A stretch of 64,000 bases of DNA from Methylococcaceae bacterium UBA6146 (GCA_002422395.1 DIUY01000030.1:221317-285316); one strand, 5' to 3'; counted from the first letter of the stretch, positions 34,871-54,378 are shown. Notes: generated by a model not told the origin, from the sequence alone. Numbers and translations are program-made.

Positions 34871-35734
34871 TTAATTGTAATTCTTTAGCCATTTCTGTGC
34901 CAATTCCGGAATACGGGTAAGTGTTTCTCTGCCAAACACCACTTCATCAACGTATCCCATGTGCAACATGTCAATAATGCGGCATAAATATGATCTTCCA
35001 CATACCCACCAAGTGTAATAATCATCAATGAACAAAATATGCTGTATTTTGCGTTGGGATGCAATTTCAAGTTCTTCCAATTCCATGCCGTCTAGTAGTG
35101 TTTCATAAACACCATCAGCGACACGGCTACCGAATGTTGTCGTATAGTAATATTCCTTAATTTCCCAGATGGCGATAGGATTGACTACCGAAGGGAACGC
35201 GCCATCCACTCGGCGGGACAATGTCCGCAGTGGCATCCCATCATGGGTTATCGTGGTTAAGCTACGAGGATCATAATCGCAGGGAATGCCATCGATGTTA
35301 GCCTCTATCAGCATATTGACCATGCCCGTCAGAAACGCATAGTTCTTTTTTTCCGATTTTTGCTTGTTCATTGGTAAAGGGCACTGAGGGTTTAGCTGCA
35401 CTTTGAGTCGATTAAATTCAATTTCAGCAGCAACTTTATCCATCAAATTACCTTGAACGGTATCATTCAGACAGGTTGCGCGGAACGTGAAATAATCAAA
35501 CAAATTTTTGCCAAAATCGGTTAACACGTTATCGCCATTAGCAATATGTTCAGCAGACAAACCGAGCTTTTCGAATTGCTTGCGAATAGCTAATAAAGCT
35601 GGGATTTTGATGGACTTTGTGCCTCGTTCGGTATAACCAACCTCTTGGCTGATAGTGCGGACATTAGCCCAAAATTCCTTGGGTTGGGAGATAAAACGAG
35701 GGTCAGCTTTCAAGATAACGTTCCACAAAGGCAA
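34871..35734 (-). CDS. Putative type II restriction endonuclease (PD-(D/E)xK fold)
   Basis: RRVDGAFP...IWEIKE motif; overlaps an upstream HTH controller; divergent from an adenine MTase. Confidence 0.7.
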   Translation of the reverse strand: MPLWNVILKADPRFISQPKEFWANVRTISQEVGYTERGTKSIKIPALLAIRKQFEKLGLSAEHIANGDNVLTDFGKNLFDYFTFRATCLNDTVQGNLMDKVAAEIEFNRLKVQLNPQCPLPMNKQKSEKKNYAFLTGMVNMLIEANIDGIPCDYDPRSLTTITHDGMPLRTLSRRVDGAFPSVVNPIAIWEIKEYYYTTTFGSRVADGVYETLLDGMELEELEIASQRKIQHILFIDDYYTWWVCGRSYLCRIIDMLHMGYVDEVVFGRETLTRIPELAQKWLKNYN

Positions 35735-35918
35735 TTAAAGAAATATCCATGGCTTTACAGACAGCTTCTAACTCGATTAAATCGAGCCGTTGCTCGCCAT
35801 TTTCATATTTCGAAACATACGATTGTGCCTGCCCTATTTTTTCGGCAAGCTGAAATTGGGTAAGGTTGCTATCTAAGCGAATTTGCCGCAGTAATGCGGC
35901 GAGGCGATTTTTTTTCAT
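35703..35918 (-). CDS. XRE-family HTH protein, probable R-M controller (C protein)
   Basis: LTQFQLAEKIGQAQSYVSKYENGEQRLDLIEL; 71 aa; immediately upstream of and overlapping the endonuclease gene. Confidence 0.82.
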   Translation of the reverse strand: MKKNRLAALLRQIRLDSNLTQFQLAEKIGQAQSYVSKYENGEQRLDLIELEAVCKAMDISLIAFVERYLES

Positions 35919-35939
35919 GCCGACTACTGTAAATTCTAT

Positions 35940-35974
35940 GTTAGGATATTCAAAATTAGAATATAAAGCCTAAC
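35940..35974. promoter_or_regulatory. Nested inverted repeat between the divergent C and MTase genes (candidate operator)
   Basis: GTTAGG-ATATTC-AAAATTA-GAATAT-AAAG-CCTAAC. Confidence 0.4.
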
Positions 35975-35996
35975 TTCTTTAGATACCCCCTTAAAA

Positions 35997-36911
35997 ATGA
36001 TTATGCCTGCAAGCCTACAACAACTTGAATTGTTTAGCACCGAAGACGCGCCAATACCGGTTTCAGGGGGTACTAAACCCTTTCGTACCCAATTATTGAA
36101 ATGGATAGGTAACAAACAGACACAAGCTGATGCAATCATTGGTTTTTTCCCCAAGCAATTTGGCACTTATTTTGAGCCTTTTCTCGGTAGCGGTGGTGTA
36201 TTGGGTGTACTTGCGCCGAAAAATGCAGTGGCGAGTGATGCTTTTTCCCCATTAGTACAAATATGGCAAACACTTCATACTGATAAAGAAGCCTTGAAGC
36301 AGCAATATGAAGAGCGCTATCAATTGATAGAACAACTAGGGAAAAAAACGGCTTATGAACAAATTCTTGCCAGCTATAACAACCAGCCAAATGGCGCTGA
36401 CCTGCTGTTTTTATGCCGGGCGTGTTATGGAGGTGTCGTCCGATTCCGGAAAAGTGATGGTTACATGAGTACGCCTGTTGGTGTCCATGCGCCAGTATCG
36501 CCAGAAAGTTTTGGTAAACGGGTCGATGTTTGGTATGCGCGGACACAGGGTGCAAACTTTTTCCACTTAGATTTCGCCATTGCTATGGCGCAAGCAAAGC
36601 GTGGCGATTTGGTTTATTGCGATCCACCTTATTCTGATAGCCAAACCATTCTGTACGGAGCACAGGCCTTTTCCTTGGAGCGGCTGTTTGATTCAATTGC
36701 GGCATGTAAAGAACGAGGCGTTTATGTCGCATTAAGTATTGACGGCACAAAATTTTCTGGACGCAAGCTTTGTGATATTGCTATCCCTGATGGCTTATTT
36801 AAGCGCGAAGAGTTCGTTAATGTGGGGCGTTCAATGTTGAAACGTTTTCAAATGGATGGGCAAAGCCTTGAGGATCATGTGGTTCGTGATAGATTATTGC
36901 TGACATATTGA
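35997..36911 (+). CDS. Dam/D12-class N6-adenine DNA methyltransferase
   Basis: LKWIGNK, YFEPFLGSG (motif I), VYCDPPY (motif IV), alpha-class order. Confidence 0.92.
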   Translation: MIMPASLQQLELFSTEDAPIPVSGGTKPFRTQLLKWIGNKQTQADAIIGFFPKQFGTYFEPFLGSGGVLGVLAPKNAVASDAFSPLVQIWQTLHTDKEALKQQYEERYQLIEQLGKKTAYEQILASYNNQPNGADLLFLCRACYGGVVRFRKSDGYMSTPVGVHAPVSPESFGKRVDVWYARTQGANFFHLDFAIAMAQAKRGDLVYCDPPYSDSQTILYGAQAFSLERLFDSIAACKERGVYVALSIDGTKFSGRKLCDIAIPDGLFKREEFVNVGRSMLKRFQMDGQSLEDHVVRDRLLLTY

Positions 36912-37980: not shown

Positions 37981-38177
37981 GGTAGTGGTCAACATTCAAC
38001 TGCTTAGGCAACTCGCAAAAAATAATCTCCCACTTGCATAAGCCGTTCGCTGAGCGGGAGCCGAAGCGAACACCAGCATTGTCGGCTTCGACGCCGCTCA
38101 GTCGACGGTGGTTTGACAGCGGAATCAAAAAACATGTTTTTTGACTCCAAAATAGCATTACCATTTTTACCACCACC
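37981..38177. mobile_element. MITE family A copy (inverted relative to 2035) carrying a ~106-bp internal insertion
   Basis: GGTAGTGGTCAACATTCAA ... TGACAGCGGAATCAAAAAACATGTTTTTTGACTCCAAAATA ... TTTACCACCACC; insertion 38008-38113 includes a REP-like doublet at 38043-38108. Confidence 0.72.
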
Positions 38178-38184
38178 CCCGTAT

Positions 38185-40782
38185 TTATCCACCAGTTGCC
38201 GCCGCTTCCGCCAACACGCAATCAACCCAAAAAATCGACCCCTCACCCAGTTTGCTCTGGACACCAATGCTGCCGCCCATCGCCTCGATCAGCTGCTTGC
38301 AGAGGGCAAGCCCCACGCCACTGCCTTCCACCCCGCTGTAAGCCGACTCCAAGCGCTCAAAATTTTTGAATAAATTTGGCAAGGCATGGGCGGGGATGCC
38401 TTTGCCCGTATCGCGGAATGCAATCCGCATCCTATCCTTGCCTTCCGGACGGCAACTGACCCAAATTTGCCCCGAATCACGGTTGTATTTAATGGCATTA
38501 GCCAATAGGTTCAAGATGGTTTGTCTAAGCCGCAAACGGTCTGCGTGCACGGTGCATGAACAATCAGCATAAAAATTAAGCGTAATTCCACGCTCCATGA
38601 TTAACGGCTGAAGTGAGCCGATACATTCCTCCAGTAATGGCCCGATAGCCAGCGCTTCCATAGCCAGCTCCAAGCGGCCAGTCTCAATCCGCGCCAAATC
38701 CAAAACTTCATTGATCAGTTCCAGCAAATGCCCGCCCGCCTTCAGTATTTCCCGAACACTGTCCAGTTGGTCGGGAACTAATGGGGCTAACGTATCGGTT
38801 TCTAACAGTTGCCCGAAGCCCAGAATGGCATTAAGCGGCGTGCGCAATTCATGGCTCATGCGTGACAGGAATTGTGATTTGGCGTGGCTGGCCCGTTGCG
38901 CCTCATCCCTGGCGTTGACCAATTCAGCAGTCCGCTCCGCCACCCGTTGCTCAAGTGCTTGGTTGAGGGAGATGAGTGCGGCTTTGGCGCGTTTGTGGCC
39001 GGTAAGGTCCGAGGCAACGAAAAGGAAGCCGATGACATTCCCCTGCCCGTCGTGTTTGGCGGTAACGGTCTGGCTGACCGGCAATAAGGAGCCATCCTTG
39101 CGGATATAAGTCCATTCACAAGGGGATAAATCACCCCGCAAGGACGGCTCAAAAAACACCGGCAACCCTTCAACCGCTTGCCCATAGCGCTTGCTTAGCA
39201 GCTCGCTGCGGGCGGCAATTTCTGTAGCCTGATGAAAAAACACCGGCGCCTGTTTATTGACAACTTCCAGCGCCTGATACCCCAACATCCGCTCGGCACC
39301 TTTGTTAAACAAGGAAATGACGCCATTAACATCAGTGGATATGATAGCCACCTCAGTGGCGGCATCAATAACAGCCTGCAATTCAATACGGGTTGCTAAA
39401 GTGGCCTCTACTTCAAGCTGGCTTTTAGTTATATCCTGCACCGTGCCCCATGAGCTTATAGGCTTGTCTTCGGCATCAAAGTCCGTATCGCCACATTCCT
39501 CAACCCATTTAATGCGGCCATCGGGCATCAGCAAGCGATGGATGATTTGGTAAGGTGTCTTGGAATGCAAAGAATTGGTGTAGACCTGATTGACTTTTTC
39601 CCTGTCATCAGGATGGATGATGTTGAGGAAAGCGTCATAAGTGGCTTCAAAATTTTCTTTGTCAAGCTCAAATAGCCGGAAAACTTCATCTGTCCAAATT
39701 AGCTGGCCGGTTTTTAAATCCAATTCCCAGCTCCCAACCTTAGCGATCCGTTGGGCTTCATTAAGACGCGCCTCGTTGAGGCGCAGGCGTTCTTCGGCTA
39801 CTTTTTGAGGGCGTAAATCCCGGGCCACCAGCCCAAAATTAATGGCTTCCCCAGTGTTAGGGTCATCAATGCGGAACAAGTCAATTGACACGGCAATCGT
39901 GCCACCATCAAGCAAATTACAAAACTGGTGTTCGCCAAGCCAACGGCCTGTGGCCAGCACTTCTGCGGCTATGTCAGCCAACAATGGCCAACGGCCACCG
40001 GCTAACAAACCACCTAACGGGATCTTAGAACAATCCCCGTCAACACTAACACCGAGCAACTGCCGCCCCGCTTGGTTAATGAATTGCACCTTACCGTCCA
40101 AACTAAAAAGCCCGATAAAGTCGGATGCAGAACGGACAACGGCGGTGTAACGCTCCATTTCACGCTCACGCAACCGCTGTTCGGTGACATCCTTGCCTAT
40201 CGAAATAACGCCGCTAAGTTGGCCATTAAAATCGTAAAGGGGTTGGTTCAGCCAGGCGATTTCCCGCTGCTCGCCATTGCGAGTGACAATCGGGTTTATA
40301 TGGCTGCTTTTTACTGTGGTGCAGCTTATTGAATTAAACAAAGCCCGAATGTGTTCTCTGTAAAATTCAGGCACAAAGGACGAAAACCAGTCCTTGCCCT
40401 TAATTTCTTCCAATTGGTAGCCGGTCAGTTGCTCAAAACAAGGATTGGCATAACTGATGTTGCCCTGCTCATCCAAGAGCAAAATGCTCACCGGTGCAGC
40501 ATTGAGCAAGTTGGCGGCAAAATCACGTTCACGTTTAAGCTCCAACGCCTGTTGATTGCGTTCGGCAACGCTTATGTCCAAAGCATTTAGGGCTCGCCAA
40601 GCAAACCAACTAGAACAGACGCCTACAAAACTTATGACGAAAAAGATATGTCCCACCAATTGCACGTTATCCCGCATTTGACATAGCCTATAACAATGCA
40701 GGGCCACCACGGCGGCTGCGGCGGCTGCGGCGAGCAATGCGGACAACATCATAACCGCCTTTAGCAATTTTTTTTTCATCAT
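38185..40782 (-). CDS. Membrane-anchored sensor histidine kinase with four PAS domains, no receiver
   Basis: Two N-terminal hydrophobic segments, four PAS/PAC repeats, SHELRTPLN H-box, NAIKYN, DTGKGI, GSGVGL, GSIF. Confidence 0.88.
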   Translation of the reverse strand: MMKKKLLKAVMMLSALLAAAAAAAVVALHCYRLCQMRDNVQLVGHIFFVISFVGVCSSWFAWRALNALDISVAERNQQALELKRERDFAANLLNAAPVSILLLDEQGNISYANPCFEQLTGYQLEEIKGKDWFSSFVPEFYREHIRALFNSISCTTVKSSHINPIVTRNGEQREIAWLNQPLYDFNGQLSGVISIGKDVTEQRLREREMERYTAVVRSASDFIGLFSLDGKVQFINQAGRQLLGVSVDGDCSKIPLGGLLAGGRWPLLADIAAEVLATGRWLGEHQFCNLLDGGTIAVSIDLFRIDDPNTGEAINFGLVARDLRPQKVAEERLRLNEARLNEAQRIAKVGSWELDLKTGQLIWTDEVFRLFELDKENFEATYDAFLNIIHPDDREKVNQVYTNSLHSKTPYQIIHRLLMPDGRIKWVEECGDTDFDAEDKPISSWGTVQDITKSQLEVEATLATRIELQAVIDAATEVAIISTDVNGVISLFNKGAERMLGYQALEVVNKQAPVFFHQATEIAARSELLSKRYGQAVEGLPVFFEPSLRGDLSPCEWTYIRKDGSLLPVSQTVTAKHDGQGNVIGFLFVASDLTGHKRAKAALISLNQALEQRVAERTAELVNARDEAQRASHAKSQFLSRMSHELRTPLNAILGFGQLLETDTLAPLVPDQLDSVREILKAGGHLLELINEVLDLARIETGRLELAMEALAIGPLLEECIGSLQPLIMERGITLNFYADCSCTVHADRLRLRQTILNLLANAIKYNRDSGQIWVSCRPEGKDRMRIAFRDTGKGIPAHALPNLFKNFERLESAYSGVEGSGVGLALCKQLIEAMGGSIGVQSKLGEGSIFWVDCVLAEAAATGG

Positions 40783-40804
40783 GGCCCCGCCTTATTGTTA
40801 TTTG

Positions 40805-40914
40805 GGTGGTAGGTTAAATCTGTGGCTGCACGTTGATAAGCGGGAGTACAAACCTGGGTTTGCCTCAGTACAAGCCAAGGCTTGTACTCCATCCACCCCA
40901 TTTAACCCACTACC
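40805..40914. mobile_element. MITE family B copy 1 (110 bp)
   Basis: GGTGGTAGGTTAAAT ... ATTTAACCCACTACC; internal GTACAAGCCAAGGCTTGTAC; near-identical inverted copy at 53435. Confidence 0.75.
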
Positions 40915-40972
40915 ATATTTTTGAATCAAAAAACTCCGCTGTCACTTAGGCATTTGAATGTTTACCACTACC
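40915..40972. mobile_element. MITE family A, truncated copy abutting family B copy 1
   Basis: TATTTTTGAATCAAAAAACTCCGCTGTCACTTAGGCATTTGAATGTTTACCACTACC matches the right part of 2035-2127. Confidence 0.68.
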
Positions 40973-40985
40973 AATAAATCTAAAG

Positions 40986-41094
40986 AATAGGGGGTTAAAT
41001 CTGTAATTTTAGTTCGTAATGTGGAGTGCAAACCTGGGTTTGCGCCTGTACAAGCCTAGGCTTGTACTCCAGCCAGCAGATTTAACCCGCTACC
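40986..41094. mobile_element. MITE family B copy 2
   Basis: ..TAGGGGGTTAAATC ... GATTTAACCCGCTACC; perfect 20-bp palindrome GTACAAGCCTAGGCTTGTAC; flanks ATCTAAAG / ATCTAAGG. Confidence 0.72.
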
Positions 41095-41160
41095 ATCTAA
41101 GGGTCAGGCCAAGAATAACTTCCAGCATTTAACATGATTACCATAGCGGCGGCTCATGAC

Positions 41161-42522
41161 TTAACACCGGCGGTTGCCCAACAAGGAATCAATAACTTTA
41201 AGAAACTTGGGTATGTCCAAGGGTTTGGTCAGGTACTCAACAAAACCAGCTTCGCGCCCTTTTCTCAGGTCACTTTCCATGGCGTTGGCCGATATGGCCA
41301 CAACGGGTATGTTTTGTGTTGACGGGTCGGCCTGCAATTGCCGGAATATTTCAAAACCATCCATATCCGGCAAGTTGATGTCCAACAAAATCAGGTCGGG
41401 GAGATGGCTTCTGGCTATTTCTAAACCCAATCTGCCCAAATGGGCGTCCAGCAACTTTAAGTCGCTATATTTGGCGATGATTTTCTGCACCAAACGGAGG
41501 TTGGCTGGGTTGTCTTCCAGGTACAGCACAGTGTGGCAAGCGGAAGTTGAGCGGGGAAGAGCTTTATTTTCGGGATTTTCCTGCGGTTCCCGTTGCGTAT
41601 TGTCGGCTTTAGGAAAACTGACCCAAAATAAGGAACCTTCACCGAGGCTACTTTCCACGCCAATTTCCCCAGCCATTGCTTCGGTCAGTTTTTTACTGAT
41701 GGCAAGCCCTATGCCGGAGCCTTCAATGCCATCATAAGGCGAACCTAAGCGCTCAAAAGGCTGGAACAAATGGGGCAGTTTATGGGCGGGAATACCATCG
41801 CCCATATCCTGCACATTAATTTGGACTTTTTCATCGTAATGTTGGCAGCCAATTCTGATAATGCCTGCCTGACGGTTGTATTTAATGGCATTGGATAATA
41901 GGTTCAACAAGATCTGCCGCATCCTGAAGCGATCCACCAAAATCGAGCAATCCCCATCTAAACCCAATTCGACTTGAATTTGCCGGCTATGGATTAACGG
42001 TTGCAGCAAGGCCACGGTTTCTTTGACTAACTCCCATACCTTGACCGGTTCTAGGATAAATTGAAATTGCCCGCTTTCAATGTGCGCCAAATCCAGCACC
42101 TCATTAATCAGTTTTAGCAAATGTTTGCCGGCAATCACGATTTCGTTGACACTTTCAAGTTGGTCGGCAGCTAACGGATGCTTGGCGTCGGCCTCCAATA
42201 ATTGTCCAAAGCCGATAATCGCATTCATTGGGGTGCGCAGCTCATGGCTCATCCTCGACAAGAATCGGGATTTTGCTTCATTGGCACGCTCGGCTTCTTC
42301 CTTGGCCAATACCAGTGAAGATTCATGCCGCTTGCGCCCCGCGATGTCGTGGACGAATGAATAAAAAAACAACTCCCCACCTATTTGGTTAATCGTCACC
42401 TTCACCTCAACGTCAATCACCACGCTATCTTTACGCCGATAACGGGTGTCAAAACGCAGATGACCGTTTTCTTGTAATGATATTTTGGAGTCAAAAAACA
42501 TGTTTTGTGGCTCAGCTATCAT
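41161..42522 (-). CDS. Hybrid histidine kinase (half-PAS, HisKA, HATPase, REC); N-terminus derived from a MITE
   Basis: SHELRTPMN, NAIKYN, GSGIGL, REC YLEDN/LLDINLP/LTKP; only the PAC half of a PAS remains. Confidence 0.85.
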   Translation of the reverse strand: MIAEPQNMFFDSKISLQENGHLRFDTRYRRKDSVVIDVEVKVTINQIGGELFFYSFVHDIAGRKRHESSLVLAKEEAERANEAKSRFLSRMSHELRTPMNAIIGFGQLLEADAKHPLAADQLESVNEIVIAGKHLLKLINEVLDLAHIESGQFQFILEPVKVWELVKETVALLQPLIHSRQIQVELGLDGDCSILVDRFRMRQILLNLLSNAIKYNRQAGIIRIGCQHYDEKVQINVQDMGDGIPAHKLPHLFQPFERLGSPYDGIEGSGIGLAISKKLTEAMAGEIGVESSLGEGSLFWVSFPKADNTQREPQENPENKALPRSTSACHTVLYLEDNPANLRLVQKIIAKYSDLKLLDAHLGRLGLEIARSHLPDLILLDINLPDMDGFEIFRQLQADPSTQNIPVVAISANAMESDLRKGREAGFVEYLTKPLDIPKFLKVIDSLLGNRRC

Positions 42523-42549
42523 TTAAACATTTAAATGTTTACCGCTGCC
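42475..42549. mobile_element. MITE family A, diverged truncated copy overlapping the kinase start
   Basis: TAATGATATTTTGGAGTCAAAAAACATGTTTTGTGGCTCAGCTATCATTTAAACATTTAAATGTTTACCGCTGCC aligns with 2052-2127. Confidence 0.7.
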
Positions 42550-42557
42550 CGCGTTGT

Positions 42558-45500
42558 TTATTCAGGGTCAATTTTTAAATACACATCCAACAGTGCGAAA
42601 AAAGCCCGGGCGTCGATAGGTTTTTCCAAGTAACCGACAAATCCAGCTTCCCTTGCACGGGCATGGTCGAGAATACCCGCGATTGCTGATAACGCAATCA
42701 CGGGAGGGATGTTCGACAAGCCACTCTTTCGCAGTTGTTTAAGAAAAGCGAAACCATCCATTTGTGGCATATTGATGTCCACTAAAACCAGCTCGAACGG
42801 CATGGTTGACAGCAAGTCCAAACCAACTCGTGTGGAGTGTGCCGTCATCAGGTGAATATCCGGCAGATGCCTGAGCAATTCGACCATATGTTTGAAATTG
42901 CCAATATTTTCATCGATATATAAGATAGTTGTGTAGTTGTCGGCTATCCGTGCTATGCGTGATTTGGTGCGCGAGCGCCGTTCCTGCGGCAATTCCAGCC
43001 AAAAGGTGCTGCCGACACCCTTTAGGCTATCGACACCAATAGCCCCGCCCATCAACTCGACAAGCTGCCGGGTAATGGCCAAACCGATGCCGGTGCCCTG
43101 TATGTTCAGGCCTTCAGCGCCTAGCCGGTTAAACGGCCTGAACAGCTCGCCGAGCCGCTCTTTCGGTATCCCCACTCCGGTGTCACTGACTTGGATGCGT
43201 ATCAGCCCGGAACTAACCAAGCGGCAACCTAACTCCACCTTACCGCCCGGTCTGTTGTATTTAATGGCGTTGGACAGCAAGTTAAGCAAACACTGTTTCA
43301 GGCGCAATGAATCCGCCCTTAGCAATATCGAAGAACAATCAGCAGAGACCATTATTTGTATGCCCCTAGCTTCAGCCATTGGCTTGACGAGTGCCAAACA
43401 AGCGTCGATGACCTCACTTAAAACGACCGCTTCTATGGATAATTCGATATTGCCGCCCTCGATTTTTGCCAAGTCTAAAACTTCATCAATCAACTGCATC
43501 AAATGGCGGCCAGCCTTAAGAATTTCGCCCGCGCCCTCCCTATGTTCGTTTAGCAGCCTGACATCCATTTCCATTAACTGGGCAAACCCCAGCACCGCAT
43601 TCATAGGGGTGCGCAATTCATGCGACATGCTGGAAAGGAACTTTGATTTCGCCAGATTGGCGCGTTCGGCTTCGTTCTTGGCGGCCAGCAATTGGGCTTC
43701 ATGCCGCTTACGGCTGGAAATGTCACGCACCAGGCCGATAAACAACGTTGCGTTGTCCAACTGAATCTCGGAAATCGCCAAATCCATCGGAAACACGCCA
43801 CCATCCTTACGGCGGCCCGTCACTTCACGGCCTATGCCGATAATACGTTTGACGCCTGACTCAACATATCTTTTCAGGTAAGCGTCATGTTCACTGGCAT
43901 AAGGCTCCGGCATCAACATCTTGACATTGTTGCCGACAATCTCATGGGGGGCATAGCCAAAAATCCGTTGGGCGGCGGGGTTGAACGATGACACGCCCCC
44001 CCGGCTGTCGATAGTGATGACCCCATCGACCACATTGTCCAAGATGGCTTGGGTATGCTTGGCGCTTTCCTTAGGGGCGCGTTCGGTGTTCTTACGGTAA
44101 CTGATGTCACTGACATAGCCATGCCAAAGGATAGAACCCTCTTCCTCCTGCTCTGGAGCGGCGTTGGCCAATAACCAGCGCACCGAACCATCGGCAAACC
44201 TGACCCGAAACTCATGCTCCCAGGTGGTCAAGCCACGCGCGGAAGCTTTGATGGAAAGCAATATCCCACGGCGGTCAAGCGGATGAAAAATAGGCATCAA
44301 TTTGGCCACATTTTCACGGGCTTCTTCAGCGCTTAGCCGGAACAATCCGGCAATCGCATCGCTGGCGTAGGGTAAGCAAAAATTTCCGGCGGTGGTCAAG
44401 CGTAATTGGAACACCACGCCGGGCACCCGGCTGGCGATTTTTTGCAGGCGCTCCAATACCTCTTGGCGACTGGCCTCGGCTTCTTTTTGGCGGGTCACAT
44501 CCTCGGTGAGGCCGATAAAATGGCTAAGCTTGCCCAGGCTATCATGCACAGGGGCAACCCGCATTTTGTTCCAAAACAAGCCGCCATCTTTGCGGTAATT
44601 GCGCAGCAAAGCTTCCCCCGCCCTGCCCTCGCGCAAGGCGGCGCGGATTTCCGCAAGTTCGGGTTGGTCAGTGTCGTTAGCCAATAAAAAACGGGCATTG
44701 TGGCCAAGCGCCTCTTGGCGGCTATACCCAGTGATGCGCTCAAAAGCGGGATTGACATAAACCAACGGCAATTTAGGGTCAGTGGCGTCAGCAATGCTGA
44801 TGCTGCCAGAACTGGCTTCGACGGCCCGGCTAAGGATATTGAGGCGGATTTCATGTTCTTTTATCTTAGTGATGTCAGTACGGATGGAAATGTACTGGTA
44901 GGGTATGCCCTGATTGTCCAAAAAGGGCACAATACTGGATTTTACCCAATACAAACTACCATTTTTCCGGCGGTTGCAGATTTCGCCCTGCCAAATTTTG
45001 CCACGGCTGATCGTCAGCCAGATGCCAGTGAAAAAACCTTGCGAATGTTCATCCGATTTCAGGATGCGATGGTTCTGGCCAAGCAGTTCGCTACGGCTAT
45101 AGCCACTGACCTCACAAAATTTTTCATTGACATAAACGATTCTGCCTTCCTTGTCGGTGATACTGACTATGGCATGATAATTGACTGCCTGATACTGTCG
45201 CCTGCATTCATAAAGCATCAGCCGGTGGTCTTCGGCTCTCTTAGTGGTTTGCCGAAAATGCCAGGCATAGTTTGCCAGTTTGGTGAGCAAGGTCTGTGGC
45301 TTAACCGTTTTTGCAAAAAAATGGTCACGCCCGTAGTCCGATACCGGCAACGTCCAGCCTATCCCCCACTCTTCCAACAAATATACGATAGGCAGTTGCC
45401 GGCACATTTCATCTTCACGCAAGATAGCCGCCAACTCAGTCCCGGAACAGGCTTCCATGTTCATGGACAACATCAGCAAGTCAACGGGGGAACGTGACAA

Positions 45501-46391
45501 AATCGCCGCTGTTTGGAACGGTTCATCAAGCGCTTCGACTTTCCACCCGGCCTGCTCCAATAGTGCGGCTCGCGCCGCCAATTGCCGCTGATTGTCGTCG
45601 ACCAACAAGATCCGATAAGGCGGGTCAGGGAACGGGGAGGCGACATCAGCGAGCTTATCCAGTATCTCGTCCGCCTCCAGGGGGTAAGCCAGACAACTGG
45701 CGGCACCGAACCGGTAAGCGGCCAGCTTGGCCGCCATATCGGCACTCTCCAGCAAAGACACCAAAGGCAAGCCCTGTAGGCACAAGCTTTTTAGTTCCAA
45801 GGCCGTGGCTTCGGTAAGGTGGCCGTTTTGCAAACAGGCCATGTCCATCAGCACTGCCGCTGGCCGCTCCTGCCCCAAACAAGCCTCCTTGACCGCTTTG
45901 TCCTCGTCTAACAAGTCAACGACAAAACCGGCCTGAACCAAGGCGGGAACAATCAGGGCAACCAGTTGCCGATTCTTTTTTGCAACCAACCACAATTTGC
46001 GCCCTTGGCCTATCGGGGAAAACAGTGTCCATTCGGTGCTTAATTTATCCACCTGCACCCGCAACTTTTTTAACACCTGGTGTAAAGGGAACAGGTCAAG
46101 GTCATGGGCATTTTGGTTGCCCTGCGGACAGCTGGCTTCAAACACCTGCTTCAACTCATGGACAAGCAGGCTTATAGCTGGCAAATGGTGTATATCTGCC
46201 ACCTCAATCAACTGGTTGATCATAATGCGCAACGACTCTATTGCCTTCGGGCCACCGTCGGCGAGTTCTTCAATATGGGTTTCCAACAACACTAACCGGC
46301 ACGGCATGCTTCTGACAAAATTATCCCGTAACCGGTGCAGGGCCGTTTGGAAATCGTGTTCAATAATCGGTTCTTTCAGTAATGAAGCCAT
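42558..46391 (-). CDS. Multi-sensor hybrid histidine kinase: Hpt-like, 2 degenerate REC, FAD-type PAS, LOV-like PAS, PAS_3, heme-type PAS, HisKA, HATPase, REC
   Basis: GQNHRILKS..W..ISRG..WQGEICNRRKNG; GHNARFL..NYRKDG..FWN; LMPEPY..EHDAYL..IIGIGREV..RKDG..FP; SHELRTPMN; LVDINMP. Confidence 0.88.
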   Translation of the reverse strand: MASLLKEPIIEHDFQTALHRLRDNFVRSMPCRLVLLETHIEELADGGPKAIESLRIMINQLIEVADIHHLPAISLLVHELKQVFEASCPQGNQNAHDLDLFPLHQVLKKLRVQVDKLSTEWTLFSPIGQGRKLWLVAKKNRQLVALIVPALVQAGFVVDLLDEDKAVKEACLGQERPAAVLMDMACLQNGHLTEATALELKSLCLQGLPLVSLLESADMAAKLAAYRFGAASCLAYPLEADEILDKLADVASPFPDPPYRILLVDDNQRQLAARAALLEQAGWKVEALDEPFQTAAILSRSPVDLLMLSMNMEACSGTELAAILREDEMCRQLPIVYLLEEWGIGWTLPVSDYGRDHFFAKTVKPQTLLTKLANYAWHFRQTTKRAEDHRLMLYECRRQYQAVNYHAIVSITDKEGRIVYVNEKFCEVSGYSRSELLGQNHRILKSDEHSQGFFTGIWLTISRGKIWQGEICNRRKNGSLYWVKSSIVPFLDNQGIPYQYISIRTDITKIKEHEIRLNILSRAVEASSGSISIADATDPKLPLVYVNPAFERITGYSRQEALGHNARFLLANDTDQPELAEIRAALREGRAGEALLRNYRKDGGLFWNKMRVAPVHDSLGKLSHFIGLTEDVTRQKEAEASRQEVLERLQKIASRVPGVVFQLRLTTAGNFCLPYASDAIAGLFRLSAEEARENVAKLMPIFHPLDRRGILLSIKASARGLTTWEHEFRVRFADGSVRWLLANAAPEQEEEGSILWHGYVSDISYRKNTERAPKESAKHTQAILDNVVDGVITIDSRGGVSSFNPAAQRIFGYAPHEIVGNNVKMLMPEPYASEHDAYLKRYVESGVKRIIGIGREVTGRRKDGGVFPMDLAISEIQLDNATLFIGLVRDISSRKRHEAQLLAAKNEAERANLAKSKFLSSMSHELRTPMNAVLGFAQLMEMDVRLLNEHREGAGEILKAGRHLMQLIDEVLDLAKIEGGNIELSIEAVVLSEVIDACLALVKPMAEARGIQIMVSADCSSILLRADSLRLKQCLLNLLSNAIKYNRPGGKVELGCRLVSSGLIRIQVSDTGVGIPKERLGELFRPFNRLGAEGLNIQGTGIGLAITRQLVELMGGAIGVDSLKGVGSTFWLELPQERRSRTKSRIARIADNYTTILYIDENIGNFKHMVELLRHLPDIHLMTAHSTRVGLDLLSTMPFELVLVDINMPQMDGFAFLKQLRKSGLSNIPPVIALSAIAGILDHARAREAGFVGYLEKPIDARAFFALLDVYLKIDPE

Positions 46392-46506
46392 TTTCTTGTA
46401 ATCGTTATTTGCTAATAAATGTCTGGAACAACCAATTTTGGCAGGCTTTATTGGTGCGGTATCACTATTCCTGATTAGTAAGATACTTCAGCTAAAGCTC
46501 AGAATA

Positions 46507-46621
46507 CGTCGTTCCGGCAGGGAGAGCGTAGCGAGGGTTGGCCGGAACCCAAAAGCCATGGAAGGCTTACAATAATTACATCCATGTAATCTGGATACCG
46601 GCAGTCCATGCCGGTATGACG
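46507..46621. repeat. REP/MITE-like element with CGTCATTCCGGC-type ends
   Basis: CGTCGTTCCGGCAGGG ... GCCGGAACCC ... GGATACCGGCAGTCCATGCCGGTATGACG; same motif family at 53666. Confidence 0.62.
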
Positions 46622-46652
46622 TTGTTGCTGAAGCACCTTTATAATCAGGTCA

Positions 46653-49600
46653 CTATTTGGCTGAATCAGCCTGCAACCAAGCAATAAGCTCATCAACAGG
46701 CATGGCTTTGGCTATCAGCCAGCCCTGCACAAAATCACAGCCTACGCCCCTGACCAAATCCAAGTCTTCTTGGGTCTCCACCCCTTCCGCGACGGTGACA
46801 AGGTTAAGTTTGGCCGCCATCCCGACGCTGGCAGAAAGTATCGTGCGAGCCGTGGCATTATCAGCGGCGCCTTTGACAAAGGCGCGGTCCAGTTTAAGTT
46901 CGTTAAATGGAATACGCTGCAATTGCTCTAGCGATGAATAGCCGGTACCAAAATCATCAATTGATAACTTGAAGCCCTTAAGCCGCAAACGGGTCATAAT
47001 ATCCAAGGTTTTGGTCAGGTCGTCCATAACCCCTGTTTCAGTAACCTCAAGGATCACGTTGCCAACTTTTAGCCCGGTTGTCTCGGTGCTGGCTTGGATA
47101 AAATCCGGCAGGTTCACATCCGACATCCAAGCCGCCGACAAATTAACGGAAATATCCAACGGAAAGCCCGCATCAACAAGACGGCGGCCACCGATAAACG
47201 CTTTGACCAATAAAACTTCCGACAATGCCCCCACCAAACCGCAGTGTTCTGCCGCCAAAATAAAGGCTTCAGCCGGCACAGCGGCCCCTTGCCGCCGCCA
47301 ACGCGCCAAGGCCTCAACCCCAACTGGTTTGAGGGTAAAGGCATCGACCTTCGGTTGGAAGAAAACATCAAATTCATCATTGTTTAAGCCATCCAAAATA
47401 TCTTCAGTCTTGATCGCCTTTGCCGTGGCTTTTTTGACGGTATTGACCTGTCTGTGGGAAGCGTCATTCAATAAAGCCAAGAAATCATCGCGGACTAACG
47501 GTTTGCCCAAACTACCCACCAAATGCAAACCTTGCAAGCAGGCTAATTCAACTGCGGACTGCATCAACCGCGCATCAACCCCGCTCACCAAAATGATATT
47601 GCCTTGGTAGCCTATCTCGCTCATACGCCGCAAAAACTCAATGCCATCCATCTCCGGCATATTCAAATCACAAAGCAGCAAATTGACGCGCTGCCCGTGT
47701 GCTTCCAGCTCTTTTAAGCCTGCCATGCCACTGTCGGCCACCAGCACCTCAGTTACCCCTAACGCGGTCAGCAACAAGGATGTTTGCCGTCGGACCACCG
47801 CATCATCGTCAACCACCAACACGCAATTGGGCAATTCTAAACAGGGCTTAGTGTTTTGTAAGGCGGGCAGGCTATTTTTAACAATGGCTTCTTCAACATC
47901 AGTGAGCGCGTGTTCAAGCTCCCGAAGCAAGGCCGCCGCATGGCCGACTGCCCCTTGCTTGGCAACAATTTCCAACTCTTTGGCCAATTCGGCAAAACGC
48001 AACGCCCCTATGGCCTGTGAGGAAGACTTCAGCTTGTGCATGGACAAAGCAAGCCCCGCCATGTCTTGGGCCAAAAGATCCCGACGGCATAAAACCAACT
48101 CGGCTTGGGCGGAACTGGTGAACAAGTCAACCAAGCTTTGGATTTGTCGGGCATCCAAACCACCCGTTATCTTAAGTAAATAATCGGTGTCCAAAACATG
48201 CTTGCCGTAAGGGGACTGTGCTAGCTTGCTTGGGAAGACCGATAATGGGGGCTTTGATGCCGCCACTGCCTGTTCGGGCAACCATTGCTGTAGCTTTTGC
48301 CGCAGGTAATTCAAATCAATAGGTTTGGGCAAGGTGTCGTCCATACCGGCGTTCAAGCAAGCCTCGAGTTCCTCCGGGTAAGTGAATGCGGTAATGGCGA
48401 TCATAGGCATGTGGGCCTCTGTGCCTTGTTCTGCTGCACGGATTGAGCGGGCAAGTTGCATCCCATCCATACGGGGCATACTGATGTCGCTTAAGATAAG
48501 GTCGTAGCCGCCTTTTTTCCATTCGACCAAGGCTTCCGAGCCGTCTGCAACAATAACGGCATCAATGCCCAACACACCCAGCTGCATTTTGAGTAAGGTT
48601 TGGTTGGTGGGGTTATCTTCGGCGACTAAGATGCGGTACGCTTGTTTTTGTTGTTCTGACTCGCCATCAGTTGGGGCGATCAATGCGGCGGAATCTTTAA
48701 TTTCCAGAGGATTTTCTTCGTGCGCCCTAGCCAGCTTGTCAATCAATTGGTTAAACCGGTCGCTGGATTTGATGATTTCTTGGGCGCATTCAAGAACATC
48801 GGCAGCCAGGTTTGTTTGCATCGACAGAAGCTGCGCCTCGCCTAAGAAGCCATTTAACGAGGTACGCAGTTCATAGCTGACACTGGCGACAAGTTCGCTC
48901 TGCCTAGCCCGGTTCTTTTCGGCTTTTTCCAAAAATTCGGCAAGGTCGTCAACCGCTTGTTGTTGGCGATCATTTTTCCCGGCGGTTTCAATCAAATTGG
49001 CGCAAGTTTCGGTAAAAGGCGCCAAAAACTCCACGGATCCGGCGTCATAGCCATCCTGCTTATTGGCCAAACCCAGCATCCCTAGCAGGCAGTCCCCAGA
49101 ATAAATCGGCATTCCCATAAACGCGGTCAGCGGCGGATGCCCTGTTGGCAAACCACGGCTACGGGGATCATTTTGCGGGTCATTGCTGATCAGCGGGCGG
49201 CCCGCAAGGATGACAGCGCCATACAGGCTGTCCAGAGATTTAAACCCTGCTCCGGTCGCCTGCATTTTCTGATACATGGCGCGGCTGGTTTCATCCCAGC
49301 TTATGTCGGTGACTGCCTTGATGCTAAGGTAAGGGTGGCCAATGGGCTCATACAACACCTCTGCGACAAACCCAAACGCACTTTCAGTCAGCAGCAACAC
49401 GCCGTCCAACAAACGGTTAACCGCGTTGCCCAAGTTACGGTCAACATTGAATTGTTGCAGGGTCTCCCGCAATAAATTCAATAACCGCTGTTGCCGCCGC
49501 TCTTCGGCATGCAGCTGTTTTTGCTGTGTCACATCGGTACGGACAGAAAAATACTGTTTTGGCTTTCCGTGCCCATCCATAATCGGCGCAATAGTGGATT

Positions 49601-50978
49601 GCACCCAATAAGGCTTGCCGTCTTTGCTGCGGTTTTGGATTTCACCTTGCCAAGTCTTGCCGGCGCTAATGGTCTTCCACATCTCAACAAAAAATGCGTG
49701 CGGATGGTGGCCGGATTTGACAATGCGGTGATTATGGCCAATCAATTCTTCTTTACTATAACCGCTTATGTCACAAAACTTTTGGTTGACATCAATAATG
49801 GTGCCATGGGCTGAAGCAATGGAAACAATCGAATGTGCATCCAAGGTGCTGCGCAACCATTTTTGCTGCGCTTGGACGGCTTGCCATCCCTTCGCCCTGC
49901 CCTGCAACAACCGATGTTGACGGGATTTTGCTATGACTAGGGACAATAATTCATAACCTTGCACGGGTTCCGACAAATAACAGCTTCCAGTGGCCAAATA
50001 ATGGCGTCTGATTTCATCGGGGCAATCAGGGCCTAGCCAATAAATCACCGGCAGTTGCACACTGTCCATTTTCAATCGGCATAACGCCAAAAAACCAGGG
50101 CTTTGGCACAACGCCAGTGAAGCGTCCAGTATCAGCGCATCGGGGGGGAAAGTTGCCAGAAGATGGGGCATCTGCAACGGTTCAGACTGAGTTACAACCT
50201 CAATACCGGCGTCATGCAAGACACTCAGGCCAAGCGCCAGCTTTTGGCGGTCAGCACTGAGCAAGAGCACACGATAAGGTGCTTGCGGCATCCAAGCAAC
50301 GCCTGCCAATTCCGACAGCAGCTTTGAAGCATCAACGGGGGGTTCAAAAAATAGGCGGACACCCAGCCCGCTGACAAAAACTGGGTCATGGCTGCCCAGA
50401 CTATCCAGCATACCGACCAGTATCGGCATCACCTCTTGCCCTGTGCTTTGCTTGAGCTGCCCTAAAAGCCATTGCCCATGTTGGGTGAGCCAGCTTGATC
50501 CCGCCACTAGCACGAGCTGTTCTTGGCAAAGGTAGCCCTCAGAAAAATCGCCATCGGATTTGTGTTCAACTATAAACCCCAAGCTTTGAAGGGTTCGGCT
50601 GAGCCGGATTGTCTCCGCAGACTGGTCACCAAGGAGGCAGAAAACCCAAGCCCCCGGTTGGGGGGGCAAGTTTTTGGCATCGACTTGCCCTGACAACGGC
50701 CCTTCACGCAATAGGGCTGCCAGATTATGTGCGGACTGCAAGGCCGAGGCCAACCGTTCGGGCGCGGGCGCGTCTTGGAAGAAATCAGCCAAGACCGAAA
50801 CCAACGCCTTGGCCCGGCTCGAAACCTCAAACCAATCCGTACCCTCAGACTTGTCAATAACATTTGCCAAGGACTTAGCCAAATGGGTGGCTATCACTCT
50901 ATCCCAACCGGCATTTTTAAGCCGGCCAGTGTGCTTGCTTATGTCTGCTGCAAGTTGTTCTAAAGCCGCAGTATTCAT
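46653..50978 (-). CDS. c-di-GMP phosphodiesterase with degenerate kinase core: REC-like x2, FAD-type PAS, GAF, pseudo-HisKA, REC, Hpt, REC, EAL
   Basis: SYELRTSLN (His->Tyr), no HATPase; HKLKSSS Hpt; two intact REC (LSDISMP, LCDLNMP); EAL motifs VEALARW, SVNLS, LEVTE, DDFGTGYSS, LKLD, AEGVE, VQG. Confidence 0.88.
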   Translation of the reverse strand: MNTAALEQLAADISKHTGRLKNAGWDRVIATHLAKSLANVIDKSEGTDWFEVSSRAKALVSVLADFFQDAPAPERLASALQSAHNLAALLREGPLSGQVDAKNLPPQPGAWVFCLLGDQSAETIRLSRTLQSLGFIVEHKSDGDFSEGYLCQEQLVLVAGSSWLTQHGQWLLGQLKQSTGQEVMPILVGMLDSLGSHDPVFVSGLGVRLFFEPPVDASKLLSELAGVAWMPQAPYRVLLLSADRQKLALGLSVLHDAGIEVVTQSEPLQMPHLLATFPPDALILDASLALCQSPGFLALCRLKMDSVQLPVIYWLGPDCPDEIRRHYLATGSCYLSEPVQGYELLSLVIAKSRQHRLLQGRAKGWQAVQAQQKWLRSTLDAHSIVSIASAHGTIIDVNQKFCDISGYSKEELIGHNHRIVKSGHHPHAFFVEMWKTISAGKTWQGEIQNRSKDGKPYWVQSTIAPIMDGHGKPKQYFSVRTDVTQQKQLHAEERRQQRLLNLLRETLQQFNVDRNLGNAVNRLLDGVLLLTESAFGFVAEVLYEPIGHPYLSIKAVTDISWDETSRAMYQKMQATGAGFKSLDSLYGAVILAGRPLISNDPQNDPRSRGLPTGHPPLTAFMGMPIYSGDCLLGMLGLANKQDGYDAGSVEFLAPFTETCANLIETAGKNDRQQQAVDDLAEFLEKAEKNRARQSELVASVSYELRTSLNGFLGEAQLLSMQTNLAADVLECAQEIIKSSDRFNQLIDKLARAHEENPLEIKDSAALIAPTDGESEQQKQAYRILVAEDNPTNQTLLKMQLGVLGIDAVIVADGSEALVEWKKGGYDLILSDISMPRMDGMQLARSIRAAEQGTEAHMPMIAITAFTYPEELEACLNAGMDDTLPKPIDLNYLRQKLQQWLPEQAVAASKPPLSVFPSKLAQSPYGKHVLDTDYLLKITGGLDARQIQSLVDLFTSSAQAELVLCRRDLLAQDMAGLALSMHKLKSSSQAIGALRFAELAKELEIVAKQGAVGHAAALLRELEHALTDVEEAIVKNSLPALQNTKPCLELPNCVLVVDDDAVVRRQTSLLLTALGVTEVLVADSGMAGLKELEAHGQRVNLLLCDLNMPEMDGIEFLRRMSEIGYQGNIILVSGVDARLMQSAVELACLQGLHLVGSLGKPLVRDDFLALLNDASHRQVNTVKKATAKAIKTEDILDGLNNDEFDVFFQPKVDAFTLKPVGVEALARWRRQGAAVPAEAFILAAEHCGLVGALSEVLLVKAFIGGRRLVDAGFPLDISVNLSAAWMSDVNLPDFIQASTETTGLKVGNVILEVTETGVMDDLTKTLDIMTRLRLKGFKLSIDDFGTGYSSLEQLQRIPFNELKLDRAFVKGAADNATARTILSASVGMAAKLNLVTVAEGVETQEDLDLVRGVGCDFVQGWLIAKAMPVDELIAWLQADSAK

Positions 50979-51502
50979 GTTTTAAGATACCGTGTGTTGA
51001 TGACATGAAGCTTGTTTTCAATAAGTGCCCGCAAGATTCTAAATGGAACTGGTTTAGAATAAACGGGGATGCCCCGCAATAACTTGCGGGCATCCTCCAT
51101 TTCTGTTGCATCCAAAGCGGCCACAACGATAATATCGAAACGGTTATTGTCTTCCTGGCCACGCAAATGCCGGATCAGCCATACACTGTCCATTTCTGGC
51201 ATGTGCAAGTCGGTAATGACTAAATCAAGGGCATGGCGGCCAATTTTTATCAGTCCATCAAAGCCTCGGTTGCCGTCAATAACTACAAAGGCGTTGAGGG
51301 GGATTGCCTGCAATACTGATTTTTGCCCGGGAACTAGGGATTCCACAGCGTTCCTAGGGATGCGCCAATGGCCGGCCGCCCGCAGTCTTCCACGCCGGCA
51401 ATTTGCCATTTTCAACCCACAACTGTACGGTTGACAATGCTCCCCAAGGGTGGCCGCCACCTTGCGCGTAGAAATAAATTCAGATGCTTGCTTCGCCTTC
51501 AA
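50975..51502 (-). pseudogene. Degenerate excisionase-type HTH + receiver regulator
   Basis: Canonical LSTVQLWVENGKLPAWKTAGG hidden in another frame between two compensating frameshifts; the first beta-alpha unit of REC is missing. Confidence 0.65.
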
Positions 51503-53788: not shown

Positions 53789-54343
53789 CTAATTAGCCTG
53801 CTCTGAAAGTTGGGCTTCTGGTTTTAGGTGACGTATCTTGCCACGTTGGTTAAGGATGTTGCCGCGTTTTTTATTGCGCATTTTTACCCGTCTAATGTCC
53901 AATTTTTGCTGATTAATTTCTACGGTTTTTAAATGCTGGAATATATCGGGCGGCATGGCATCAGGGAGGTCAATCAGTGTGTACTGGCCACGGATGGATA
54001 CGTTGGTGATGTTGTTTTTATCGACGCCGGACTCTTCAACCAGCACTTTTTTAAGGGCTTCCAGCGTGATTTGGTGTTGGTTGCCGACATCCAAACGGTA
54101 GCGGACCATTTTAATGCCCGACCGGACAGGAGGTTTTCGTAGGGCTGGCACTGGGGCGCTCTGACTATTTTGGGCCAAATACACTAATGCCGCCGCACAT
54201 TCTAAAATGTCGGCATCCAATTCTGCCGCTATAGCCGCTATTAAAGTGCGCTGCGCCTCCAAGCCCTCATGGGTCAAAATAGATTGCAAACGGGTTTTTA
54301 ACCGCTGCGCCTGATCAGGCTCAGGCCGTTCCATTGTGTTCAT
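53789..54343 (-). CDS. Stand-alone DeaD/CsdA C-terminal half (dimerisation helix + DbpA RNA-binding domain)
   Basis: LECAAALVYLAQ then MVRYRLDVGNQHQI...VSIRGQYTLIDLP..MP..IFQHLKTVEINQQKLDI; no helicase motifs. Confidence 0.78.
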   Translation of the reverse strand: MNTMERPEPDQAQRLKTRLQSILTHEGLEAQRTLIAAIAAELDADILECAAALVYLAQNSQSAPVPALRKPPVRSGIKMVRYRLDVGNQHQITLEALKKVLVEESGVDKNNITNVSIRGQYTLIDLPDAMPPDIFQHLKTVEINQQKLDIRRVKMRNKKRGNILNQRGKIRHLKPEAQLSEQAN

Positions 54344-54378
54344 GTGTTGTCTGGTTGTTGTTATCCGGCAAATAGCTA

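Follow-up and report, generated by a model that had tools for sequence, protein, structure and literature searches.

A kinase-dead Hpt-EAL scaffold beside Hpt-less hybrid kinases in a Methylococcaceae genome: a candidate trans-fed phosphorelay to cyclic di-GMP breakdown

How does a phosphodiesterase that carries the receivers and the phosphotransfer domain (Hpt) of a phosphorelay, and no working kinase of its own, obtain its phosphate? This question is raised by a gene cluster at positions 38185-51502 of a 64-kb stretch of DNA from Methylococcaceae bacterium UBA6146 (GCA_002422395.1, DIUY01000030.1:221317-285316; hereafter the window, with positions counted from its first nucleotide). The cluster consists of five open reading frames (ORFs), all on the minus strand and thus co-oriented as in the initial annotation, with the transcription order P0005 (175 amino acids, aa), P0004 (1441 aa), P0003 (1277 aa), P0002 (453 aa) and P0001 (865 aa). 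That annotation had proposed a split phosphorelay in which several kinases converge on the 1441-aa protein, and what it described of the sequence was confirmed wherever it could be checked. When the five proteins were analyzed, a relay that is fed in trans and has a RocR/PvrR-type phosphodiesterase for cyclic di-GMP (c-di-GMP) at its end was a well-supported prediction, and we consider it reasonably probable that the whole cluster is a branched multi-kinase phosphorelay with kinase-dead P0004 as its hub.

P0004 (46653..50978, minus strand, like every cluster feature given below) was assigned as a kinase-dead phosphorelay scaffold and c-di-GMP phosphodiesterase on the basis of Pfam, the RocR structure 3SY8, the NCBIfam PvrR model and its homologues. 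Pfam and hhalign gave the order helical N-terminus, two REC-like domains, PAS of the flavin adenine dinucleotide (FAD) type, GAF, DHp remnant, REC1, Hpt, REC2 and EAL. REC1 (residues 780-900; 48279..48641; Pfam) contains E787, D788, D831, T863 and K885. The Hpt (residues 940-1035; 47874..48161) carries His981 in the motif HKLKSSS and scored 32.3 bits, above the Pfam cut-off. A REC (783-896) followed by an Hpt (949-1030), both over their Pfam cut-offs, means that the D1-H2 part of an unorthodox kinase is present. The C-terminal REC2-EAL part (residues 1050-1430; 46689..47831) is a phosphodiesterase module of the RocR/PvrR type. REC2 has the quintet D1057, D1058, D1104, S1132 and K1159, and the EAL catalytic set is complete (E, R, N1279, ExxE, the DDFGTGYS loop 6, K1362, EGVE and Q1418). 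Residues 1053-1432 aligned with residues 6-386 of the 400 residues of RocR (3SY8; E-value 3.4e-54), a full-length REC-EAL match. The NCBIfam PvrR model gave 297.8 bits over positions 5-393 of 398, below its equivalog cut-off of 580, and the module forms the C-terminal end of the long P0004 chain instead of a stand-alone two-domain protein. Two intact receivers (D831 and D1104), an intact Hpt (H981) and a full EAL active site had been claimed for this protein, and all of them were found.

The kinase part is a different matter. The DHp remnant (residues 685-750; 48729..48926) reads VSYELRTSLN, is weakly matched by HisKA and has no ATPase domain after it. In its H-box, VSYELRTS, Tyr702 occupies the phospho-His position, where an unorthodox kinase has the H-box His. 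No HATPase_c (PF02518) was found in P0004 using Pfam, and with a gap of only ~30 residues between the DHp remnant and REC1, the ATPase domain must be missing altogether and not degenerate. The earlier statement that the protein cannot autophosphorylate agrees with both observations. Without an ATPase domain and a phospho-His, P0004 would have to receive its phosphoryl groups in trans.

In the case of the N-terminal part (residues 1-360; 49899..50978), a helical domain is followed by two REC-like pseudo-receivers. Residues 105-232 and 233-360 match REC1 at 90% and 98% probability in hhalign, and the acidic pocket of these pseudo-receivers is degenerate. Residues 1-100 were also considered as a second degenerate Hpt. 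This was rejected, as hhalign gave a probability of ~1% with the scaffold Hpt as well as with the N-terminal Hpt of the P0003 type; the position of His32, which is Arg in 49 of the 66 full-length ATPase-less homologues over which residue conservation was counted, also speaks against it.

The sensory part of P0004 (residues 380-664; 48987..49841; Pfam PAS_9 and GAF_2) consists of a MmoS/NifL-type (FAD-type) PAS and a GAF domain. Residues 384-498 aligned with 3EWK in a PDB search (E-value 2.7e-43), which we take to be the FAD-binding redox sensor domain of MmoS. P0004 could thus be thought of as a redox-regulated phosphodiesterase under its own FAD-type PAS and GAF, comparable to DosP, in which REC and Hpt are leftovers and the kinases serve other proteins. 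The PAS is indeed highly conserved (0.77 on the per-domain scale given below) and shares homology with the redox sensor domain of MmoS. PAS-EAL enzymes of the DosP type need no phosphorelay, and DosP structures are among the PDB matches of P0004. However, we regard such a phosphorylation-independent enzyme as very improbable, as it leaves unexplained both the near-invariant D831, H981 and D1104 with full receiver quintets in the 66 homologues and the tight co-inheritance with Hpt-less hybrid kinases.

Is the missing kinase core a peculiarity of this genome? Homologues were searched with the C-terminal half of P0004, and a tree was drawn from the C-terminal 665 residues of 120 homologues. About 87 homologue clusters, from Methylobacter, Methylovulum, Chromatiaceae, Dechloromonas and a Magnetococcus metagenome-assembled genome, share the P0004 layout without HATPase_c, and 33 more distant clusters keep HisKA and HATPase before REC-Hpt-REC-EAL. 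The ATPase-bearing clusters (Thiobacillus, Gallionella, Nitrosomonadales) all read SHELRTPLN. Presence of the ATPase domain is a single change on the tree (Shimodaira-Hasegawa-like approximate likelihood ratio test value 100), and REC1 of the ATPase-less scaffolds groups with REC1 of the complete-kinase scaffolds. The initial annotation had allowed for simple local decay, with an intact kinase core in the EAL protein of all relatives. This was ruled out because every close homologue, across the ATPase-less clusters, is without the ATPase domain and one change accounts for it. Judged from the tree, loss of kinase function in the EAL scaffold is clade-wide, ancient and one event.

Among the 66 ATPase-less homologues, D831 of REC1 is kept in 65, H981 of the Hpt in all 66 and D1104 of REC2 in 65; for the catalytic residues of EAL the count is 65-66. 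At the H-box position His is found in just 8 of the 66; elsewhere it is Q, R, L, Y and others. By these counts, REC1-Hpt-REC2-EAL residues are under strong purifying selection, and selection maintains a relay chain without a kinase. The best explanation is that P0004 descends from a self-contained sensor kinase of HK-REC-Hpt-REC-EAL form (HK, histidine kinase). Such fused proteins make up an uncharacterised sister clade (Thiobacillus, Gallionella, Nitrosomonadales, Rhodoferax), in which the REC1-Hpt-REC2-EAL half is 43-48% identical to P0004, has the same order and contains orthologous REC1 and REC2. They differ in that SHELRTPLN and a full ATPase domain are kept, so that the whole relay is possible in cis.

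When conservation was compared domain by domain in the scaffold family, EAL (0.80), REC1 (0.78) and PAS (0.77) were high and the DHp remnant (0.46) was the lowest of the structured regions. That REC1 is as conserved as EAL though no kinase core is present in cis can be taken as a sign of another function. The kinases may signal mainly to another receiver (in relatives, a HTH_17-REC protein), while REC1 and the DHp remnant, controlled by PAS-GAF, drain or gate the Hpt phosphate. The DHp remnant would then act as a His-independent phosphatase or docking surface, and the scaffold would set the gain of the relay rather than just carry phosphate. The order of PAS, GAF and DHp remnant is kept across the clade, and the ELRT..N of the H-box is partly kept (E in 31, T in 31 and N in 42 of 53 ungapped sequences), as expected from this. 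It also fits that the DHp domain of EnvZ is by itself active as a phosphatase and that ArcB uses reverse transfer through its receiver. However, no other structured region is as poorly conserved as the DHp remnant, which could not be detected in 13 of the 66 homologues, e.g. those of Chromatiaceae, and the putative phosphatase residues are kept in just ~58%. We consider a sink or gate of this kind unlikely.

If P0004 is fed in trans, the neighbouring and co-inherited kinases P0003, P0002 and P0001 would, by autophosphorylation, be the most likely phosphate source. All three bear MSHELRTP H-boxes, and their cores are 49-57% identical to each other. They are, as initially described, paralogous kinases with an intact H-box and ATPase domain and no His-bearing Hpt, and P0002 and P0003 end in receivers. 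P0003 (42558..46391) is a hybrid kinase without a functional Hpt, as assigned from Pfam, PDB matches and NCBIfam FixL. Its order is an Hpt-like N-terminus that has lost the His, two REC-like domains, a FAD-type PAS, a LOV-like PAS (residues 512-657) without the adduct Cys, a further PAS, a FixL-type haem PAS, HisKA, HATPase and REC; Pfam reports the REC-like N-terminus, three to four PAS domains, HisKA, HATPase and REC. LOV proteins were among its PDB matches.

Residues 768-901 of P0003 match the FixL haem PAS (1D06; E-value 1.7e-34), and the proximal His is kept. The alignment (lmpepy.sEHDaYLkRY...kRIIGIgReVtG) shows that the surrounding sequence, with the Arg/Ile context of the FG loop, is kept as well, and an intact kinase core follows. 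The NCBIfam FixL model gave 244.9 bits and its cut-off of 850 was not reached; no FixJ-like gene was found in the cluster from Pfam and the neighbouring genes. P0003 is therefore like FixL, the rhizobial oxygen (O2) sensor kinase, in its haem PAS with proximal His, and unlike it in being a hybrid, in its extra PAS domains and degenerate N-terminal Hpt-REC-REC, and in having no FixJ partner. Residues 408-531 aligned with 3EWK (E-value 2e-52), so that P0003, like P0004 at residues 384-498, resembles MmoS, the Methylococcus redox sensor, with cofactor binding predicted. The link to O2/redox sensing made at the outset gains from this strong homology to the FixL haem PAS and to the MmoS-type FAD PAS, and the ligands sensed by these haem- and flavin-type PAS domains of the kinases are predicted to be O2/redox cues.

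P0002 (41161..42522) is a 5'-truncated hybrid kinase with half a PAS, HisKA, HATPase and REC. Its orthologs are sensor kinases of 832-844 aa, of which ~384 N-terminal residues are missing in P0002. The protein is 68.5% identical to residues 385-830 of the 832-aa Methylovulum ortholog (L082_k2), and the REC is 80% identical. P0001 (38185..40782) has four PAS domains, HisKA and HATPase and no receiver according to Pfam. Two hydrophobic N-terminal segments suggest that this kinase is anchored in the membrane. When it was compared along its whole length with L082_k4, the kinase that closes the Methylovulum cluster and likewise has no REC, the identity was 61%.

The co-inheritance of kinases and scaffold was examined by synteny. 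A single-protein search of genome contigs gave mainly the distant complete-kinase clade, and the close loci were obtained from searches of encoding contigs and of genomes. In Methylococcales relatives, a HTH_17-REC gene and the scaffold gene are followed by one to five kinases; directly downstream of the scaffold there is a DHp-CA-REC hybrid without Hpt, often with more kinases after it. A histidine kinase adjoins the scaffold in every ATPase-less locus examined. In Thiocystis violascens it lies upstream, is of the CHASE8 type and has its own Hpt, and in Dechloromonas the sole kinase beside the scaffold is a downstream PAS kinase without a receiver. For comparison of adjacency, we used loci whose flanks each reach 2.5 kb or more (7 ATPase-less and 26 ATPase-bearing). 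A separate kinase within 6 kb was present in 7/7 ATPase-less versus 6/26 ATPase-bearing loci (hypergeometric p ~4e-4, the loci being phylogenetically related), and an adjacent kinase on the same strand in 6/7 versus 5/26. The synteny check suggested by the initial annotation thus found Hpt-less hybrid kinases co-inherited beside the scaffold. In addition, 17 receivers of Hpt-less partner kinases form one clade (100/99), which takes in one member from a betaproteobacterial locus; the other hybrid kinases of this genome fall outside.

The Hpt domains of the genome were also counted. Three others were found, each of them part of a complete unorthodox kinase; of the four Hpt matches in total, none is in a CheA-like protein. 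Since the other three are tied to complete kinases, His981 belongs to the only Hpt of the genome without its own working kinase core. The description of this Hpt as the only intact one therefore applies within the cluster and not to the whole genome. Elsewhere in the genome (C2:144463-151121), an Hpt-less hybrid (940 aa) lies directly downstream of, and head to tail with, an unorthodox DHp-CA-REC-REC-Hpt kinase (1281 aa); this pair may be another shared-Hpt arrangement.

By which route would phosphate enter the scaffold? The initial annotation had drawn it from kinase His to kinase REC, then to the Hpt, the adjacent REC and the phosphodiesterase. The trans-fed chain and the co-inherited Hpt-less hybrids agree with this part, in which P0003 and P0002, hybrids that lack a working Hpt, would hand the phosphate of their receivers to His981. 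The route from kinase receiver to His981 is suggested by the Hpt-less hybrids, by the precedent of RocS4-HptA-RocR3 described below and by an arrangement in the Olavius algarvensis Gamma 3 endosymbiont. There (L060 8696-12012), a DHp-CA-REC gene precedes an Hpt-REC-EAL ORF that overlaps it by ~300 nucleotides (nt) in another frame; either the relay is genuinely divided between D1 and H2, or the assembly, an old one, contains a frameshift. What the drawn route does not account for is the conserved REC1, which it leaves without a role. A route from kinase His to REC1 to His981 is suggested by the conservation of REC1, the receiver-less Dechloromonas partner and the receiver-less P0001; here P0001 would phosphorylate D831 of REC1, which would hand the phosphate on to His981. 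Residues near the H-box hardly differ between partner kinases, fused kinases and generic hybrids, so the specificity residues of DHp and REC would not separate entry through REC1 from entry through kinase receivers. Both routes are compatible with the data, and we think that both operate.

From His981 the phosphate would pass to D1104 of REC2, and REC2 would modulate c-di-GMP hydrolysis by EAL, with the FAD-type PAS and GAF of the scaffold probably adding a redox input. All phosphotransfer steps, and the direction of the effect on phosphodiesterase activity, are inferred. A more far-reaching idea is that the ATPase-less family represents a new class of signal-integrating pseudo-kinase hub. Its PAS, GAF and DHp remnant would gate the flow from O2-, redox- and light-type kinases through REC1 and Hpt, either by heterodimerising with a partner DHp as RetS does with GacS or as a sensor-controlled REC1 phosphatase or sink. 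We hold this idea to be rather unlikely as it stands.

The first gene of the cluster, P0005 (50975..51502; TTG start; 4-nt overlap with the start of P0004), is a decayed HTH_17-REC regulator. In relatives, a HTH_17-REC response regulator of 199-219 aa stands directly before the scaffold gene. When P0005 was compared with 199-207-aa orthologs, the central 23 residues of the HTH were scrambled and 23 residues of the REC (alpha1-beta2) were deleted. Read in another frame, the DNA still gives the orthologous HTH sequence GALSTVQLWVENGKLPAWKTAGG, which indicates two compensating frameshifts. In Pfam, P0005 had no HTH_17 match and a partial REC match of 26.5 bits, below the cut-off of 30.2, and so is not an intact regulator. 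Both an independent 2020 run and contigs of the source sample contain the identical sequence. A groundwater relative with ~93% identity has 86 nt where the window has 6, with indels exactly at both frameshift sites, and is free of these lesions. From the independent run and this relative, the lesions are real and lineage-specific, and on that comparison P0005 is a pseudogene of a regulator belonging to the module. The earlier statement that no intact DNA-binding regulator is present is thus right for this cluster, and in relatives the module does have an intact HTH_17-REC protein. In relatives, the module would also drive this transcription factor, and c-di-GMP breakdown would be the sole remaining output here; by the same comparison, an output through EAL only is a local peculiarity.

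Other genes have also changed. The N-terminal Hpt-like domain of P0003 reads NQLIEVA, where its ortholog (L081_k1a) reads HHLKGAA. In the closest relative (L081 14487-18320; 62% identity), the P0003 ortholog is split into two genes, a 564-aa Hpt-REC-REC-PAS and a 677-aa PAS-kinase-REC. The ATG and the first ~16 codons of P0002 are supplied by a palindromic element resembling repetitive extragenic palindromic (REP) sequences or miniature inverted-repeat transposable elements (MITE), with the core GGAATCAAAAAACATGTTTTTTGACTCC (at 42487-42514) and about 58 genome copies. Copies in the window lie at 42474-42549, 38114-38161, 40915-40972 and 2065-2092.

These changes could mean that the module is being lost in this genome and no longer works as a relay, and that its intact-looking genes have not yet decayed. 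Two frameshifts and a 69-nt deletion in P0005, confirmed in the independent run, the loss of ~384 N-terminal residues from P0002 with a start inside a repeat element, and the missing N-terminal Hpt His of P0003 are all in line with it. The module is also patchy, occurring in ~6/151 genomes of the order and being absent from 4/6 genomes of the same genus. However, P0004, P0003 and P0001 are open with all catalytic and phospho-acceptor residues intact, and the core and REC of P0002 are 68-80% identical to its orthologs on a very short branch. A relay that has already ceased to work is in our view quite improbable.

Each of the three rivals, the sink or gate, the eroding module and the phosphorylation-independent enzyme, is less likely than the trans-fed relay. 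Several points nevertheless weigh against that relay. The Hpt-less hybrid kinases might in principle use the other three Hpt domains of this organism, and the strongly conserved REC1 gets no role if kinase receivers feed the Hpt directly. The local module is eroding in P0005, in the lost sensor region of P0002 and in the N-terminal Hpt of P0003. The synteny loci are phylogenetically related, so that the enrichment does not reflect independent events and the p value overstates their independence. To our knowledge, the extent to which phosphorylation controls the phosphodiesterase activity of RocR is not firmly established. The intergenic gaps of 261 and 378 nt contain repeat elements, and promoter and terminator scans, from which operon boundaries might have been read, were no better than shuffled controls. 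When sequencing runs were searched for RNA support, the cluster sequence matched DNA runs only.

The initial annotation had further suggested that the enzyme sets motility versus attachment. The genome has 12 GGDEF and 10 EAL matches, mostly in composite proteins, and thus a c-di-GMP network; within the cluster itself, the Pfam scan of the five proteins found no GGDEF or HD-GYP, as had been noted. No match for flagellin (Flagellin_N) was obtained in the 99.99%-complete genome, so the organism is probably not flagellated and flagellar motility is unlikely as the output. A single pmoA-family match was found, with an open frame of only 195 aa covering profile positions 70-238.

The initial annotation knew of no description of this architecture, and no paper describing it was found when the literature was searched for its exact domain string and for an Hpt/EAL protein with a dead kinase. 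A paper on hypoxia in Methylobacter was considered as a possible description and set aside, as it concerns a different protein (PAS-EAL-GGDEF). The logic, however, is known. In Pseudomonas aeruginosa, the Hpt-less hybrid kinase RocS4 signals through the separate HptA to the REC-EAL protein RocR3 (PMC12051241). The Roc (RocS1/RocS2/RocS4, HptA, RocA1-3, RocR/RocR3) and PvrS/PvrR-RcsC/RcsB networks are alike to our module in that several kinases converge on a DNA-binding regulator and a REC-EAL protein. They differ in that P0004 fuses Hpt and REC-EAL with a dead kinase remnant, an extra REC1, a FAD-type PAS, a GAF and two pseudo-receivers. In addition, the paired regulator of this module is HTH_17-REC, not of the GerE/LuxR type, and its sensors are cytoplasmic haem- and flavin-type PAS domains.

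The RcsC-RcsD-RcsB system of Enterobacteriaceae offers a functional resemblance; there, a hybrid kinase without Hpt (RcsC) feeds a kinase-like Hpt carrier (RcsD) that is unable to autophosphorylate, a sharing of tasks like the one proposed for this module. RcsD is a membrane protein with a degenerate ATPase-like domain, without receivers and without an enzymatic output, and its phosphate goes to the separate DNA-binding RcsB. P0004 differs from RcsD by its receivers, its EAL output and the missing ATPase domain, and its architecture fits a kinase-dead Hpt carrier with Hpt-less hybrids adjacent to it. What is new here is the fusion of the Hpt carrier and REC-EAL in one scaffold with an extra receiver and its own PAS-GAF; the concept was already established in Roc and Rcs, and the gain is incremental.

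The surroundings of the cluster are housekeeping or unrelated genes, with RNase D, SurA and LptD upstream and a dehydrogenase, a restriction-modification-like cassette and SpeA downstream. The spacer between P0002 and P0001 (378 nt; repeat-rich part 40832..41096) contains palindromes and REP/MITE-like copies (repeat families D3, D5, D10 and I2-I5), and an 85-nt direct repeat (82% identity, with nested palindromes) that is probably another small repeat family. At 53789-54382 (minus strand), a 197-aa ORF overlapping the end of surA has only DeaD dimerisation and DbpA RNA-binding domains and no DEAD/helicase core; it looks like a stand-alone C-terminal piece of a DeaD-type helicase. Between speA and an oxidoreductase gene (34871-36911), a DUF7690/DUF7687 protein is divergent from a D12-class (Dam-like) adenine methyltransferase, and this pair is a possible restriction-modification cassette.

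The scaffold family is widespread, common in sequence databases and experimentally untouched, and D831, H981, D1104 and Tyr702 are residues on which it can be tested. If the relay is true, a four-step self-contained phosphorelay enzyme has lost its kinase and become a shared hub, a natural case of pathway fission and of convergence on a second-messenger enzyme. If the scaffold is also a gating pseudo-kinase hub, c-di-GMP breakdown would compute a combination of external kinase inputs and the internal redox state. In methanotrophs living on O2 gradients, a working relay would make the c-di-GMP level, and with it probably matrix or biofilm behaviour, depend on O2/redox sensing of the haem and flavin type.

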